DNA of 64,000 nucleotides from contig OZ024742.1 in the NCBI GenBank assembly GCA_964016885.1, positions 324,818,001-324,882,000 on the forward strand, written 5' to 3'. The translations under genes were made by a program, and so were the position numbers. Under the pieces are notes generated by a model, which made no database searches, had not been told where the DNA came from, and worked only from the letters and a program-made list of their open reading frames with translations. Position 1 is the first letter of the stretch; every line of letters begins with the position of its first letter. The DNA is from Eledone cirrhosa. Its lineage: Eukaryota. This document shows positions 15,350 to 48,645 of this stretch, piece by piece.

Positions 15350-15401
<52 letters not shown>

Positions 15402-32431: not shown

Positions 32432-32536
<105 letters not shown>

Positions 32537-32739
32537 CATATCATACATACATAGATACATATTTACTCATGCAATTACGGGTGGTTGTGTACCTTGTTGC
32601 CTTTAGTCATTAACGCATAAATCTAAGGAAGCTAAAAAATTAAAAGGTAAGAAATAAGCATGAATGCATATAATTAGGGGAAAGGGGTACTAATAAATGT
32701 TACACTATATAGAATTATAGTGAGTTGCTATTTAGAATA

Positions 32740-33330
32740 TTTAATTAGGTTTATAGTATTTAACTGTTTTTCGTATACGGTGATTACAAACTATAATCAG
32801 TCCTGTCTTTTATTCAATAAATCGTCCTTAGATTTAGTAATTTCCAAGATCTCCCCTGAACATAACATGCATTCCCTCCTGTTCCCAAAATATGGAGTTC
32901 TTTGTAGAATGGTGTTCCACGACAGCTTGAAATCTATTTTTTTCTTTTTATAGTTATTTACTGCTTCAGCTAAATATGTGGTGTTAGCTAGTTTAGTATT
33001 GTTAAAACTACTAGAGTGTGCGTAAAATCTTTTCTTAAATGTGTTTGATGTAGATCCTATATATGTTTTGTTGGAGTCTGTAGTAGACACAGTGCATTTA
33101 TATATTACATTATTAATCAAACAGTTGCCATTTAAGGGGAAAATGCTTCTAATTCTGCAATTACAACCATACGCAAGATGGTTGTTGGGGGTACCTTTAC
33201 CATTCGCATTAATCCTTGAGGTATTCCTATTGTAATTAATGTTAGCGGGAGAATGAATATTGCTTTGTGGGTGGTTTAGTGCTAGGGTTGTATTGAGATT
33301 GTGTTATGTTGTTTTTGTGTTGGTAATTTG
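32740..33330 (-). pseudogene. Penelope-like GIY-YIG 3' fragment
   Basis: GCNCRI..PLNGNCLINNVIYKC..TYIGSTSNTFKKRFYAH..CMLCSGE..LLNKR is the same motif series as at 17593-18110. 5'-truncated at (TA)n. Confidence 0.85.
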
Positions 33331-33389
<59 letters not shown>

Positions 33390-33552
33390 ATAATAATAAA
33401 TTTGAAACTGTTCCTCGGATGAACGGCCTGTTCCTTTGCTACGGCCCTTGATAAACCTGTTCTACATCATCCACTTTCATCCCAGGAACAGTTTTTGATA
33501 GCGCTAGTTTGTGATTTAAATTCAGGAATTTTATATTCTTTGAATGAAAAGA

Positions 33553-33636
33553 ACCTTCTGACGAGAATCTTTCTTTGCAACGAAGGCCGTATGGTCTCCG
33601 TTTTATTTTTGGGATTCGAAACCGATCGGTAAAGGT
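33553..33636 (+). ncRNA. Type I hammerhead ribozyme, copy 1
   Basis: acctt-CTGACGA(33558-33564)-gaatctt..gggattc-GAAA(33618-33621)-palindromic ACCGATCGGT-GUA site(33629-33631)-aaggt. Confidence 0.88.
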
Positions 33637-34035
33637 AACTATAGTAGGTAAAGTCAATTTTTAAAAATTTATTTTGAAACTTTTTCATTGTTTACTAAAC
33701 CTTGTTTATATTTGTTCTGGCTCGTTAATTTATTAACCCGCCATTGAACCACACTGGCATTTGGTTGGACAATACATGCGTACCTTGGCGCCTTGTGCGT
33801 GAAGGGACGTATTTCATATTACTACTACCTCCACTAACGTTGAGAACAAACCTGGTCATTCCGACTGCTGCTAGTAATAGCTGTGGCTAGTTTGACCTAC
33901 CTCCTTTTGCCTCTATCTTTGCTACGGCCCTTGATAAACCTGTTCTACATCATCCACTCTCATCCCAGGAACAGTTTTTGATAGCGCTAGTTTGTGATTT
34001 AAATTCAGGAATTTTATATTCTTTGAATGAAAAGA

Positions 34036-34119
34036 ACCTTCTGACGAGAATCTTTCTTTGCAACGAAGGCCGTATGGTCTCCGTTTTATTTTTGGGATTC
34101 GAAACCGATCGGTAAAGGT
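34036..34119 (+). ncRNA. Type I hammerhead ribozyme, copy 2
   Basis: Identical to copy 1. CTGACGA 34041-34047, GAAA 34101-34104, GTA 34112-34114. Confidence 0.88.
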
Positions 34120-34292
34120 AACTATAGTAGGTAAAGTCAATTTTTTAAAATTTATTTTGAAACTTTTTCATTATTTACTAAACCTTGTTTATATTTGTTC
34201 TGGCTCGTTAATTTATTAACCCGCCATTGAACCACACTGGCATTTGGTTGGACAATACATGCGTACCTTGGCGCCTTGTGCGTGAAGGGACG

Positions 34293-34339
<47 letters not shown>

Positions 34340-34341
<2 letters not shown>

Positions 34342-35475
34342 AAATTAAGATATATTAAATTAAATTAAATTAAATTAAATTAATGGTGTCCTGCCGGATA
34401 GACATGCACCATATCACCCGTAAAATATGCTCCAAAATTCTAATGAATAGATCCGAGCATTTTATATCAACTAGAAATTGATTGACAAATAAACATATGA
34501 AACAATCACAGGGGATAATTTGTAAAAGTGTGTAAGCACACATAGCTAGGTAGGTAACTAAATAAAGTTTAACTAGAACTTCAAAAATAGATACCTTATA
34601 AAATGATTAATCTTCTTTGTATATATTCCATTAAAGAAATATATTTAACCAATTAATCGATTGGTAAATTGGATTTTCAACAGGGAAGAGGTCCAACAAT
34701 CTGTGTTTACGCATCACATTCAAATCAGCGACTGGCTAGTAACACGTGCTGTATTTACTAAAATACACACATCAGACCAGCTTCGTCCCGGTGGCGTGAA
34801 TAGGGTTATCGACAACTAGCTACCTACCTAGCTATGTGTGCTTACACACTTTTACAAATTATCCCCTGTGATTGTTTCATATGTTTATTTATATGTCAAT
34901 CAATTTCTAGTTGATATAAAATTCTCGGATCTATTCATTAAAATCTTGGAGCATATTTTACGGGTGATATGGCGCATGTCTATCCGGCATGACACCCTTA
35001 ATTTAATTTAATTTAATTTAATTTATCTTAATTTTGGATATATATAAATACGGCTCCTTAATTGTAGAGCTAACTTAGTTGAAAGGACTTGACTGCTGTT
35101 TCTAGTTGTCGATAACCCTATTCACGCCACGGGGACGAAGCTGGTATGATGTGTGTATTTTAGTAAATACAGCACGTGTTACAAGCCAGTCGCTGATTTG
35201 AATTTGATGCGTCAACACAGATGGTTGGATCCCTTCCTTGTTGAAAATCCAGGATCTGGCTACTGTCGTTTACCAATCGATTAATTGGTGAAATATATTT
35301 CTTTAATGGAATATATACAAGAAAGATTAATCATTTTATAAGGTATCTATTTTTGAAGTTCTAGTTAAACTTTATTTAGTTACCTACCTAGCTATGTGTG
35401 CTTACACACTTTTACAAATTATCCCCTGTGATTGTTTCATATGTTTATTTATGTCAATCAATTTCTAGTTGATAT
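34340..35475. repeat. Inverted plus permuted repeat: A-B-C | B'-A'-spacer-C'-B'
   Basis: 34821-35036 is the reverse complement of 34340-34556, and 35102-35475 is the reverse complement of 34464-34819. Direct repeat 34821-34917 / 35381-35475 has a period of 560. Confidence 0.88.
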
Positions 35476-43109: not shown

Positions 43110-43551
43110 ATAATCTAGCTGTCGTCTGTTCTACAGTGTGGATGTCATTCACTTCGCACAGAAGTTTTGTTCAAATTTATTGAGGAAATTTTGTGAGTTC
43201 AAACTTAATTTTGATACAATTGTGTAGCTTGACCCTCCGTCTGAACTGTCAGGCGGTGGGTCAGCTCATCTTTACCCCTCCTAGAGGTGAAAAACCTGTT
43301 TTAAAAAATGTTGTGTAAACAATTTCAATCGTCTAACAGAAATGTTAAACGCAGCGAACGAAAATAGTGGTGGGGGGACAGCGGTAAGAGTTGTAAGCTC
43401 GCACGCTTTAGTCCCCCCCTTCCTTCCCAACTAACGTCATAGAGAAGGAAGGAAAAATTAAAATAAAAACAGACGAATCTGCGGAGAAAAAAAATGACGA
43501 AAACACAAATCTGGACATGGATTCCAACAGCGAAAAAAAAAATTTGAAAAA

Positions 43552-45174
43552 TTGCATGACAATACTAATAACACAAACAAAGACACAACAAACACAAAAT
43601 TAACATTTGAAAATAACACCATATCAGAACGCAAAGCAGACGACAAGATTTCATTTGCACAGAAAACAAAGAAATCTTTGACTTATATAGCGGAAAACAT
43701 TTCAGATGGGGTACGAAGGATCACGGACGCCAAACAATACATAAGTGAAGGAGAGAATGGTATTTTATCGGTGAAAATGCCTCAAGAATTCACGAAAGAC
43801 ATTGAAAGCCGAACGGTCAAGTTTCGGACCATCAACAACAGTACAAAAAAACCTGAACAGCCTTCTCAAGCAGATATCAAAACAGTACTCACAGAAGTAC
43901 TTAATGAAACCACTTTCATAAGAAAAGACAGATTGTATGGAAGCCTAGCAATTATCATGAAGAACGAATCGGCGGCAAAAAAATGTGCTTTGTCACCGAT
44001 TCGTTCGAAAAATTTCACCTTTTATCCATCTTATATGGGGAAAAGAACTCAACGCATATGGCTGGATGCAATGATGCCAGATGTGGACTACTGCTGGCTC
44101 ATAGCTGGCTTCATCGATCCAGTGAATGACAACGTGATTTTCATTGGGAAAACCACAGGAAATGCGTTCAGTGGAACAGGTATAGAGCTGGTAGTGCAAA
44201 TGAAGCCTGAACGCATCGCCCAAATACCCGACAGAATCCTATTAGAGGACTACGGGTATATAAACATTAGCGTGGAGGGGAGAAGGCCGTCCTGCCATAT
44301 CTGTGCAGGCAGAGGGCACCTGAAGGCCGCTTGTCCCCAACTCAACAAAAAGAAAACCCTGCTACCAACACCAACTCCACCACCACCACCACAACAGATA
44401 AACAAACAACAAAACTCAGTCCCACCCAACCCGTCCCTCAGTAAAACCACAACACCACCACAACACAAACAGTCACAACACAACCACCGCAGACACAACA
44501 CACAAGACAGTCTAACATAGTGACATCCATCTCCCCCACAAAGAAAACCAACACGGAAACATTACCAGCAAACATACCTCTTCCCTCCAACACTGAAGAT
44601 AACCCAACGAATTCGGAGGAAGAAACGGAGTCCTTCAGACAGATTAAAAGGAAAAAAAGAAAACATGTGCAAAACACACAAGGACAAACAACCCCCACCC
44701 AAATCTCAACACAATCCAACAAAACAGAAAACACCCCTCCAGCAACAAACAAAACCAAACCTGCCCCTCCCCTCTTCGAAACACTCACACCATCGGAAAA
44801 AAAGACATTACACTATACTTACATCAACAGAAACAATAATAAATTAAATGAACTCATATACAATAATCCTTCGGTACAAACCGAAGGTGTAAACTTTGTT
44901 TCGTCAGAAAACTACCCACATTTAAAATTAATAAAGATCCCAATGAACCTCTACCAAAAACTAAAAAAGGATTTTAAAGAGGACGTAGGACCACCCTCTG
45001 TCAAACCCATAAACCGCGTCCTACTAAAAAGCTTTCCCCCTCCCCTTCCCCTCCCCAACACAACTCCAAACACCACACACTGACGACCCCACACCACCAC
45101 AAGACACCCCTTCACCCAACACTCCCGACCCCATGGAAGTCGTGCAACCCGAACCCCGGGAAGCGGAAAGGTAG
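43552..45174 (+). CDS. LINE ORF1 (gag-like), split by frameshifts
   Basis: VEGRRPSCHICAGRGHLKAACP is a CCHC zinc knuckle. The Pro/Thr-rich tail continues in 44520-45083 and on to about 45174. The true start is probably just upstream of the A-run at about 43533. Confidence 0.75.
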
Positions 45175-45207
45175 GTCTCTACACTCTCCTTTGGCTCTGC
45201 CGCCCAC

Positions 45208-48200
45208 ATGGATGTGTTAAGAGTAGGATGTTTGAATGCACGTGGCCTGGGCTCAACTTGGAAGCAAGCAAAGCTTCTAAATGACCTCAGGTCATGTAGT
45301 ATAAATGTAATGGTTATCTGTGAGACTCGAATCAGCGTCGTGCGGCAGCTGGCCCCCACCTTCGATGACTTTGAGGTGCATGCATCTTCTGTCAACCTGG
45401 AGGTGGGGGTGGGGTTGTCGTACTGCTGCAAAAACACCTGGGTCTTGCCGTACAGGTTGTGCACTCGGACCCGGAGGGTCGTTTGTTGGTGCTAGACGTT
45501 GGCAGTAGTGAAAGTGCGGCCTTGAGACTGGTCGCCGTCTACTCCCCTTTCGGAGCTGAACGGCCCGACTTCTTCCAGTGTTTGGAGACTTTTCTGGGAA
45601 CGTCGCGTTCCCTGCTTCTAGCGGGGGATTGGAATGACATCCTGGATGCACGTTGGGACTATGCAGGAGCATGTCCTAATAGAGGGTGGTGTAACAGCCT
45701 CAAGGGGTTACTCGACCGTTTTAACTTGGTCGATAGATATCGACTAGATTTTCCAACTGTGCCTACCTGGACTTGGAGAAACCACAGTGGTCAATCTAGA
45801 TCGTACTTAGATAGATTCTTAGTTAGAAGTAAGGATAGGGACATATTAAGCTGTCCAGAAATGCGCACGGTTGGCTACACGGATCACAAATTAGTGACCT
45901 GCGTGGTCAATCTCGAGAAAACACATAGACAGGGTCCCGGTTACTGGAAACTTAACTTGTCTTTACCGGCAAAAGAGACTTACAGAAACCGGATTAGCAG
46001 ATTAGTTAAGGAGAGGTTGACGGGTGCAATCGTCAACAACCGATGGTGGGCATCTCTCAAAAGAGAGATTAGAACAGAATCAATAAGTTATAGCAAGATG
46101 TTAGCTGCCGATAGGAATAGAAACGAGAAAGAATTAACAGGTAAATTAGAAGAGGCAATCAAGAGCGAAGATATGGCCAGAGTGCTGGCATCGAGGACGG
46201 CCTTGAACCAGTTTTTCGATGCAAAGCACGAAGGCTGCGTCATTCGAAGTAAAATACGTGCTCTAGGTAATGAGGGGGCCAAAGCCGTTGGATGGGCCCG
46301 CGTGACAGAAGCTAAGAGTGGAAATCGATCCACCATCCGGTCGTTGCAAGACGAAGATGGACGGGTGATCCGGGAGCCTAAGCAGATGTGCGAGGCCTTT
46401 CAAAGGCACTTTGCCCGATTGTTCGGGGGGAGGCGAGGGTCCAGGCGGGGGCGTGGATTTCGGTCCATACCTCGACGGCCTGCCCCGTCTCTCGAGCGAA
46501 GTGGCAGAGTCCTGCGAGGGACCAATCTCGGCTGATGAGATCGGAGATGCGCTGAGCCAATGCAACAGACGCAAATCTCCAGGTCTCGATGGTATACCTT
46601 ACGAACTTTATTTAGCAATGCCGGTCTTCTGCTCCGAACTCCTCGAAGCGGTCTACTGCAATTGGCAGCAGAACGGGAGAATTCCTTGTTCTGTAGCCAA
46701 GGGCGTAGTCACGCTGGTGAGGAAGGACGAGAACAAGGGGGATAGTATAAATAATTTTCGGCCCATAACCCTGCTAAACACAGAGTTAAAGATTTTGGCC
46801 AAGGTGTTAGCAAAGAGGTTGGCGCTTGTCGTGGGTGGCCTGGTGGGAGATGCGCAGACATGTGCTATCCCATCCAGGTCCATTCACGATAACCTCCACC
46901 TCATGCGATACATCATAGAGAGGGTTGGCAACAAACCCGGCTTCGGTGGGGCCCTGATCAACTTGGATCAGTCTAAGGCCTTCGATAGGGTCGACCATGG
47001 TTACCTGGATGCGGTGCTAGCGGCGGCTGGGTTCGGTCCTGTTTTCAGAGGCGGCATCACTGCCTTACATAGCAACCACATCTGTTCTAGGATCAAGGTG
47101 AACGGCTACCTTTCGAAGCCGTTCGAAATCACACGATCCATTCGACAGGGGTGCCCTCTCTCCTCCCTTCTGTACGTATTGACTCTCGAGCCTTTACTGA
47201 AGAAGTTGGAGTTGTTGCAGGGTATCCCCCTGGAACCAGGATTGAGCAAAGCGGTGTCGGCCTACGCCGATGACGTAACAGTAATGGTATCGACCGACTC
47301 GGAGATCGAGGCGATCGGTACCTTACTGGAGGAGTACGAAAGGTTGTCAGGAGCGAAACTGAACCGGGAAAAATCCATCGGGCTGCAACTCGGAACGTGG
47401 AGAGGCAGACCGATGCCTCCTGACGGTGTCGTCGGACACTGGACGGAGGGCCCGGTAAAGTTGGTTGGAGTCTGGTTTGGACCGGACCTCCAGGTGGAAA
47501 AGAACTGGAACGAGGTTACGAACAAGGTGTTTGCACTAACCCAGAAATGGGCCAAGTGTAAGCTGTCCCTAAAAGGCCGGGCGGAGGTGGCGAACATTTA
47601 CATAGCGTCCGTCACTTACTACCACCTGACTGTCGTGCCTTGCCCTAAGGAAACACTCACCACCATGGAACGCATGCTCTTCCAATTTCTTTGGAAGAAG
47701 CGCCCTCCTATGGTGAGAAGATCCATCTGCTGCCAACAACCTTCGAAAGGAGGGCTGGGGATGCCGTGGTTGATGATGCGTAGGCACGCATTAAGGCTAC
47801 GGCACCTACAGGTATTCCTCACTGGTCAACCGGTGTGGGCTCCGTTCGTGAAACGAGCCTTTCCGAGACTCGTCTCGCTCACCGAGCTACAGTCCTGGGT
47901 CAAGCAAAGATCCGGAAAACTGGGAGACTGGTACACTGAGTGTGCTCAGGCGCTCAGGGCTCTCTGGCAAGCGGGCCAGGCCATCGGTGGAGAATCCACC
48001 TCATCATTCTATAGAGGGCTGGTGGCTAGCAGGGGCGATGACACCCTTGGAGAGTCGCTGGACATGGAGGAAGACGAACTGGCCAGCCTGTTCGGTAGGA
48101 CTTTCGGCCCAGGACCAATGGACAACTTCCAGAAGTTACTGGCCTGGCAGTGCTACCGGGGGGCTCTACCCGTTCGAGAGAGGCTCTACAGACACGGGCG

Positions 48201-48645
48201 CCCGGGCAGGGATCCCTCAAAAAAGATTTGCCCTAGATGCGTGCGTCACGAAGAAACCGTTGCGCACGCATTGGTGCAATGTCCGGGCGTGGATGATCTG
48301 TGGGGCTACGCCGAACGACTGCTGTCGCGGGTGGCGCCGATTAAATTGACCGCCGAGTCCGTGATGACAATCAAACCGCCTCCCCTCTTCACAAAGGAAG
48401 CAAAGGCGGTTTTTCTGTGCGTAATAGCCATGTTGAAAGAGGTTGTTTGGTGGACACGATTGAAAGGTCTGAGGTCAGGCAACTTCCTCTCTGGCCATAG
48501 TCTGGTCTACTTCTTCCGATATCACTACGGAAGAAGGATAAGAATGGAGAGAGAGGTGCTTGGCCACAGGCAGTTTTATGAAAGGTGGGTGATAGTGGCG
48601 AGAATGGCTCGTGTAAATGGGCCTTCTCTGTATACCATCCTGTAG
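45208..48645 (+). CDS. LINE ORF2: APE endonuclease, RT and C-terminal zinc finger, with two frameshifts
   Basis: CLNARGL, ICETR, AGDWN, SYLDRF, TDHK; KSPGLDG, FRPITLLN, LDQSKAFDRV, RQGCPLS, YADD; CPRC..EETVAHALVQC. Confidence 0.93.

Follow-up and report, generated by a model that had tools for sequence, protein, structure and literature searches.

The genome of Eledone cirrhosa contains a dispersed family of 483-nt repeats, which is probably a protein-free non-LTR retrozyme that is inserted by Penelope-type element (PLE) machinery and whose template, a circular RNA of monomer length, is copied by an enzyme borrowed from such elements. The borrowed reverse transcriptase (RT) and endonuclease probably belong to the Hydra clade. 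Judged from the sequence, the family shows every non-LTR retrozyme trait that can be assessed in this way, i.e., at least two complete consecutive type I hammerheads with a fold below -5 kcal/mol (here -20.8 kcal/mol), a short non-coding unit with less than 50% GC (483 nt and 38.7% for the monomer of the copy described below), and dispersed multimers without an autonomous ORF. This class of element is already known, and the family is of value for the genomic evidence on the mechanism of its insertion.

The copy from which the analysis started lies in a window of 64,000 nt (the whole stretch of DNA analysed; contig OZ024742.1), and its features are given in Table 1. The direct repeat at an offset of 483 nt (33434-33819 against 33917-34302) has three mismatches in 386 nt (33476, 33663, and 33690), which agrees with the 99% identity claimed in the first-pass annotation, and the absence of a credible ORF was likewise borne out, as the longest ATG-initiated ORF of the circular monomer has 13 aa in the sense and 73 aa in the antisense direction. 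The claim that the unit is bounded by (TA)n is correct for the right end, which meets the microsatellite directly, but not for the left, where a 47-nt junction (33387-33433) separates the repeat from the (TA)27 tract. This junction may have arisen by chimeric integration or by a deletion that reached into an older neighbour. The tip of about 22 nt that it contains was also found downstream of the Hydra ORF at locus L076 and at positions 15400 and 28896 of the window, and scrambled left junctions of this kind occurred in 2 of 40 single-arm loci. The host genome has a size of 3.0 Gb and is rich in microsatellites. Contigs of two sequencing runs cover the unit, which has no bearing on its expression.

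Table 1 Features of the window copy and its immediate flanks (positions are those of the window)
Feature	Position	Strand	Remark
3' part of the GIY-YIG ORF of a Hydra-clade PLE	32533-33333	-	Pfam E 3e-4, below cut-off
Left (TA)27 target microsatellite	33333..33386	.	
Inverted 3' tip of a different, abundant TA-inserted family (about 22 nt, identical)	33385..33406	-	
Inverted 19-nt snippet of the unit (33476-33494) within the scrambled 5' junction	33405..33423	-	Self-match
5'-truncated 1.80-mer of the 483-nt unit	33434..34302	+	869/483 = 1.80; 3' end is the 'long' family end (+188)
Predicted hairpin immediately preceding stem I	33520..33545; second copy 34003-34028	+	Alignment columns 399-424
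Type I hammerhead 1	33553..33636	+	Core 33558-33564, GAAA 33618-33621, stem III 33622-33629; predicted cut after 33631
Predicted self-excised 483-nt monomer or circle	33632..34114	+	Inferred
Type I hammerhead 2, identical to hammerhead 1	34036..34119	+	Core at 34041; predicted cut after 34114
'Short' family end (+80)	34194 (also 33711)	+	Internal in the window copy; likely RT start site 1
108-nt 'tail' between both fixed ends	34195..34302	+	Likely RT start site 2 at the long end
Covarying hairpin just before the long end, inside the tail	34259-34295	+	
Right (TA)n target microsatellite, joined via CATAT microhomology	34299..34339	.	

The two hammerheads had been described as identical and fully canonical type I ribozymes. 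They are indeed identical and have a canonical core (stem I ACCTT/AAGGT, CTGACGA, G10.1-C11.1, GAAA, and a GUA triplet), but stem II, which is closed by a G-C pair, carries an insert of about 50 nt. The free fold reached -22.9 kcal/mol, against -20.8 kcal/mol when the sequence was forced into the hammerhead. Nothing was found in Rfam at gathering score, and no hammerhead model even at E<=5, but this result carries no information, because the models are likely to fail on the long insert in stem II. Among 30 diverse clan members, the named ribozyme structure was paired in 92.5% of cells, and 32 compensatory cells were observed versus 11.9 in shuffles (none of 500 reached the observed value) and at most 12 in slid controls, although relatedness among these members can inflate the count; the number of pairs with double changes, 6 in the same members, was not significant. 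The compensatory changes indicate that the ribozyme function is under selection, and as far as sequence comparison can tell, the hammerhead structure is selected across the clan. In the hairpin preceding stem I, compensatory changes were also seen when families A, A2/A3, and B were compared. Recurrent 8-nt forms of stem III were all palindromes (CCGATCGG, which is also that of both window hammerheads, 214; CCGCGCGG, 8; CCGTACGG, 7), in a sample that favours CCGATCGG, and non-palindromic 9-nt forms were common (CCGATTCGG, n=74). The dimeric hammerhead model expects a palindromic helix III (PMC4209133); here it is not obligatory, since the older A2 subfamily has the non-palindromic 9-nt form. 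Two full ribozyme spans in one arm were present in 25 of 87 position-ordered loci, and the window copy, if transcribed, is of a kind that could release a monomer. Researchers have found that only one of nine Xenopus retrozyme dimers was cleaved in vitro (bioRxiv 10.64898/2026.07.22.740005). A word resembling a Pol III B-box in the ribozyme was dropped, being absent from family B by eye.

In the genome, 1,246 exact matches to the 19-nt ribozyme word were counted and none to its reversed control, so the repeat is not a product of chance. About 600 loci are estimated for this 19-mer family (the first 100 matches represented 47 loci), the 20-mer of the tail occurs 1,908 times, and a first-look search with the unit gave 1,719 candidates, of which the 40 that were scored were full-length with 96-100% identity. 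A pattern designed as a control gave 1,204 further matches, most of which belong instead to the older A2 subfamily with stem III CCGATTCGG. Sister family B has units of 477-483 nt that are about 60% identical and have the same layout. In family B (L093:4600-5450, L104-L132), the same stem III, two ends at about +97 and +195, and inverted arms were seen. Representative clan monomers of 468-487 nt align end to end, down to about 60% identity, and it is the whole unit, not the ribozyme alone, that is conserved across A, A2/A3, and B. The unit-length variants (481, 483, 484, and 485) are array-specific. Copies are spread across all large contigs, and the longest arms have 10.1 units (L085 has 10.1 + 1.9 units; L062 and L085 are arrays of 9-10 units).

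For closer analysis, 122 of an estimated 1,000-2,000 loci were examined, i.e., 82 in set 1 (47 in position order and 35 best matches) and 40 further loci in set 2, which were found by the tail word (40 of the 44 such loci within the listed range). Seven overlapping duplicates among L001-L030 and the segmental duplicate L025 were left out of the counts, as were six secondary or foreign fragments from the end, private-mutation, and haplotype counts, and three from the cut-site counts. An attached ORF or a common foreign 5' flank was found at none of the 122 loci, and PLE fragments within a few kb were set apart by TA tracts or unrelated DNA. The retrozyme reading of the first-pass annotation was upheld by dispersed ORF-less multimers, none of the 122 loci being attached to a PLE ORF, by a covarying ribozyme, and by read-through of the cut site. 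Its two alternatives, a retrozyme or an ORF-less PLE-derived unit, merge into an independent retrozyme lineage with PLE insertion geometry. We also observed that a 17-nt minisatellite of several kb begins at the ribozyme cut site of the family, twice independently (L199-L203, G000:C4:374.306-374.315 Mb; L293/L294, C25:20.46 Mb), which is satellite DNA born from a retrozyme.

The insertion geometry was derived from end positions counted from the first base after the predicted cut site. Among the 124 arms of the 82 set 1 loci, 69 had their 3' end at +80, 46 at +186-196, and 9 elsewhere; the 59 arms of the 40 further loci gave 35 short, 20 long, and 4 other ends. Both 3' ends finish in TATAT/CATAT and continue into (TA)n, and the 5' ends are scattered. 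Multimers with variable start points, as put forward in the first-pass annotation, were therefore not confirmed: variation is confined to the 5' ends, and the 3' ends have fixed positions (+80 or +188). The 3' end of the window copy, 34302, is likewise one of the two fixed family ends and not an arbitrary point of permutation. In many insertions, a second, inverted arm meets the first at their 5' ends, almost or entirely without a gap, and these head-to-head pairs combined a short with a long end in 33 of 41 cases in set 1 and 15 of 16 in set 2, a total of 48/57, the remainder comprising one short-short pair, no long-long pair, and pairs with one unclassified end. This matches the two-end pattern of autonomous EN+ PLEs of the Hydra clade, and their 5' truncation, inverted 5' copy, and (TA)n targeting were found as well, but the unit has no ORF with RT and C-terminal GIY-YIG domains; it fails as a PLE in this respect and works like PLE cargo. 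In PLEs, two internal RT start sites delimit the tail (PMC11167929). Because the two fixed ends and the short/long pairing resemble this tail, we strongly infer that the insertions were made by PLE machinery. Flanking duplications of about 13-16 nt were seen by eye at L007 and L026, with (TA)n hiding any duplications elsewhere, and the insertions have no LTR architecture. An intact Hydra-clade family with 915-aa frames, represented for example at G000:C3:360.37 Mb, has a pLTR hammerhead, ends at about +51 or +153, and a tail of about 102 nt, and its member L310 has one arm of each end type; other local pLTR-type families have tails of 60-100 nt.

The nature of the template was addressed through haplotypes. 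If the units of a locus had come from independent molecules, 1,266.6 mixed locus-site cells would be expected among 2,845 at 60 polymorphic sites, but only 21 were observed. The same held across direct and inverted arms (11/1,032 versus 501.6 expected), and although the expectation ignores subfamily age structure, the young subset agreed (3/770 versus 379.6). Cells with at least two copies were used, leaving out homopolymer-edge sites 32-34 and gap alleles. There were 42 haplotypes among the 64 fully scored loci, and the tail-to-tail locus L052 had mixed haplotypes, as expected for two insertions. At a coverage of at least 3, private mutations were single in 102 cases, partial in 10, and fixed in 2, indicating that homogenisation of the arrays after insertion is slow, so that a new variant can reach fixation across all units only by way of one monomer. 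Moreover, 283 arms crossed the cut site while 10 stopped within about 4 nt of it, and 129 of 130 family-A junctions at the cut site were perfect, in a count that required the upstream motif and took overlapping loci twice. A covalently closed monomer explains the haplotype purity together with the read-through most simply; homogeneous source arrays outside the sample, acting as linear multimers, would also give pure haplotypes. Within-array distances were not smaller than those to the nearest other locus (median 1.08% versus 1.03%, p=0.25), and this comparison was given up as a circle test, being non-discriminating, in favour of the haplotype test. Folding of the circle was unremarkable, its stability exceeding that of shuffled sequences only weakly (z=-1.6), whereas published circles have been called 'highly self-paired'.

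A minority of arms may have another origin. Ten 5' ends lay within about 4 nt of the cut site versus 4.3 expected (p~0.01), which hints weakly that some of the template was cut linear RNA, since another interval (254-292) was equally enriched. Among non-satellite matches genome-wide, from which seven minisatellite matches were left out, truncations numbered 13/30 at +1, 11/24 at +8, and 3/27 at -81; the contrast of +1 with -81 (13 versus 3) gave p~0.02, and the 11 at +8 make it a plateau. A previous statement that 5' ends do not pile up at the cut site (2/124) was withdrawn, as the pooled data show a modest excess and that count was biased by picking loci with an intact ribozyme word.

These insertions could also be PLE-dependent copies of long linear multimers, transcribed from a small number of homogeneous source arrays and left uncut, with the hammerhead as a passenger or acting late and no circle involved. 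We consider this rather unlikely. Possible source arrays of 9-10 units exist (L062 and L085), cut-site read-through is expected on uncut RNA, and in vitro, insertion by PAc was unaffected by hammerhead mutants, cleavage being dispensable and uncut RNA the main substrate (PMC11167929). However, 42 haplotypes at 64 loci, each fixed across all units, mean that the sequence must have gone through a single-monomer stage repeatedly, new array mutations stay single, linear copying can only shorten arrays, and the compensatory ribozyme changes speak for a selected function. If a cleaved linear monomer were the template and the RT, on reaching its 5' end, jumped to the 3' end of that molecule, multimers would arise without ligation; this would account for the surplus of 5' ends near the cut site (10 versus 4.3) and of truncations at +1 (13 versus 3). 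Template jumps usually leave scars, whereas 129 of the 130 junctions were free of indels; as the excess is also a plateau (n=11 at +8) and the interval 254-292 is just as enriched, we find this explanation very improbable.

That the unit is the pLTR of an unsampled autonomous PLE, with the arrays as its truncation or tandem by-products, would fit the uniformly PLE-like insertion hallmarks, and only part of the family was examined. It is nevertheless hard to credit in view of the 122 loci, all lacking an ORF or common foreign 5' flank, the conservation of the whole unit across A, A2/A3, and B, and the fact that CCGATCGG ribozymes combined with another stem I were matched 5 times versus 9 for the control, none of them an ORF-linked element. 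A comparison of the monomers with 18 PLE proteins also gave no homology, except for a retrozyme inserted in L317. A satellite that multiplied locally or moved at the DNA level would fit the tandem arrays and the 35 family alleles that were single or partly shared at a coverage of at least 3, but dispersal over all large contigs, 3' ends fixed in the manner of an RT product, 5' truncation at random points, inverted arms, and TA targeting leave it with almost no probability, and the end structure largely refutes it.

Candidates for the enzyme that the retrozyme would borrow are present in the genome, which contains Hydra elements whose open frames span 850-960 aa. Twelve apparently intact Hydra-clade PLEs (L306-L317), up to 98.6% identical, were observed with frames of 912-963 aa, a 3' UTR of about 1.9 kb, and a tail of about 102 nt; they exceed the <3 kb described for Hydra, and clan retrozymes lie in TA tracts adjoining two of them. 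Another locus (L099:4491-6999, minus strand) holds an 836-aa open DKG-type (non-Hydra) PLE with its own pLTR hammerhead that ends in (TA)n. This element and Naiad are further candidates, as (TA)n is also the target of Naiads in octopus (PMC8557442 File S1). Similarity of the tail to PLE families was not significant (p 0.06-0.99) in the 10 PLE-type stretches sampled, and blastn of the unit against 22 Hydra loci found separate insertions only and no pLTR homology. A likeness of the tail to that of Hydra-915 (TGGCTC at the same offset, and CATTGA) was noticed only by eye and rejected (p 0.18-0.29). In a Hydra family (L057, L063, L070, L071, L075, and L076), the 3' UTR occurs with or without a stretch starting AG/GTAAGT, which suggests that spliced and unspliced Hydra RNAs were both retrotransposed. 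The GIY-YIG fragment next to the window copy has a CxCX5C-like linker and CxxC and CxH motifs; a CxC-type linker and these motifs are traits of Hydra-clade PLEs (PMC8557442). It was rejected as the unit's own ORF, since it belongs to a separate, older, and very abundant family with an unrelated 3' UTR, in which a pattern search found no hammerhead; it is 92.5-95.4% identical to 11 other copies, none of which has the unit nearby.

The window also contains other elements. Seven further type I hammerheads, with a palindromic or minimal stem III, belong to at least three other TA-inserted PLE-type families and mostly form inverted pairs (1602(-), 15681(-)/15818(+), 29288(-)/29419(+), and 49900(-)/50857(+)). 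A multi-arm inverted-repeat insertion between TA tracts (34342-35470) recurs at 71-95% identity in at least eight other loci, and no canonical hammerhead was found in it by pattern search. At 43498-48645 (+) lies a frameshifted LINE-type element with an APE-like endonuclease, RT, and zf-RVT.

Metazoan non-LTR retrozymes resemble the present family in being ORF-less, AT-rich tandem units with one type I hammerhead each, organised as dimers to multimers, with a short palindromic helix III and coexisting PLEs (PMC7229834; bioRxiv 10.64898/2026.07.22.740005), and a circle and a borrowed RT have been proposed for them in the same sources. The unit of 483 nt is above the 150-450 bp of Cervera (PMC7229834) and within the 51-972 bp of Li (bioRxiv 10.64898/2026.07.22.740005), and its helix II is long, with the insert of about 50 nt. 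Cleavage and circles have been demonstrated for coral, mussel, and axolotl retrozymes, whereas here they are predicted from sequence. Fixed RT-type 3' ends, short/long arm pairing, and single-haplotype insertions are found here and are not reported in the available parts of these two sources; our literature search, in a partial library and with supplements that may bear on the point, found no cephalopod retrozyme and no PLE-type ends in retrozymes.

On the PLE side, EN+ Hydra-clade elements share (TA)n targeting, two alternative 3' ends with a type I hammerhead upstream of them, truncation at the 5' end, an inverted 5' copy, and a tail at one end only (PMC8557442). The tail has 108 nt here, versus about 90-100 nt in local Hydra elements and 30-40 bp cited for other PLEs. 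In contrast to Hydra PLEs, the unit has no RT/GIY-YIG ORF and no detectable local pLTR homology, and spreads as pure monomer repeats. PAc Poseidon likewise has two start sites downstream of the hammerhead that define the tail, an AT-rich target, and nicking and extension of both DNA strands (PMC11167929), but its start sites lie inside its own ORF without target homology, whereas here TATAT/CATAT microhomology and a non-coding RNA are involved. Dimeric hammerheads through a palindromic helix III are shared with PLE hammerheads (PMC4209133). Circles were proposed there, as a hypothesis, to be templates for more-than-unit reverse transcription, and are here backed by counts of haplotype purity and read-through.

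Based on these observations, the retrozyme would move as follows. A transcript with two hammerheads would cleave itself, probably as a dimer through the palindromic stem III, and the freed 483-nt monomer would be ligated into a circle. A PLE endonuclease would nick both strands of a (TA)n tract, and the two DNA ends would prime reverse transcription at two internal sites. The RT would then circle the template until a random stop (mean arm about 610 nt, at most 10 turns), and the joining of two cDNAs 5' to 5' would create the inverted arm. A minority of templates would probably be linear cut RNA.

Published proposals for retrozyme mobilisation by PLE enzymes on a circular template rest on co-occurrence and pLTR similarity only. 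This family offers evidence at the level of insertions, i.e., two-site ends, short/long pairing, one haplotype per insertion, and read-through, and with its predicted RT starts at +80 and +188, (TA)n target, and candidate intact enzymes, it makes the circle-template hypothesis testable in vitro. We further speculate, seeing the chances as evenly balanced, that the families, which range from 99% to about 60% identity with the same size and fold, form a long-lived clan of viroid-like RNA circles of about 480 nt, independent replicons that parasitise Hydra-clade enzymes priming at two fixed sites on each circular haplotype. If so, this would be the first genomic record of rolling-circle reverse transcription building animal retrozyme arrays, and the inverted 'tail at one end' of PLEs would reflect obligate two-site priming.
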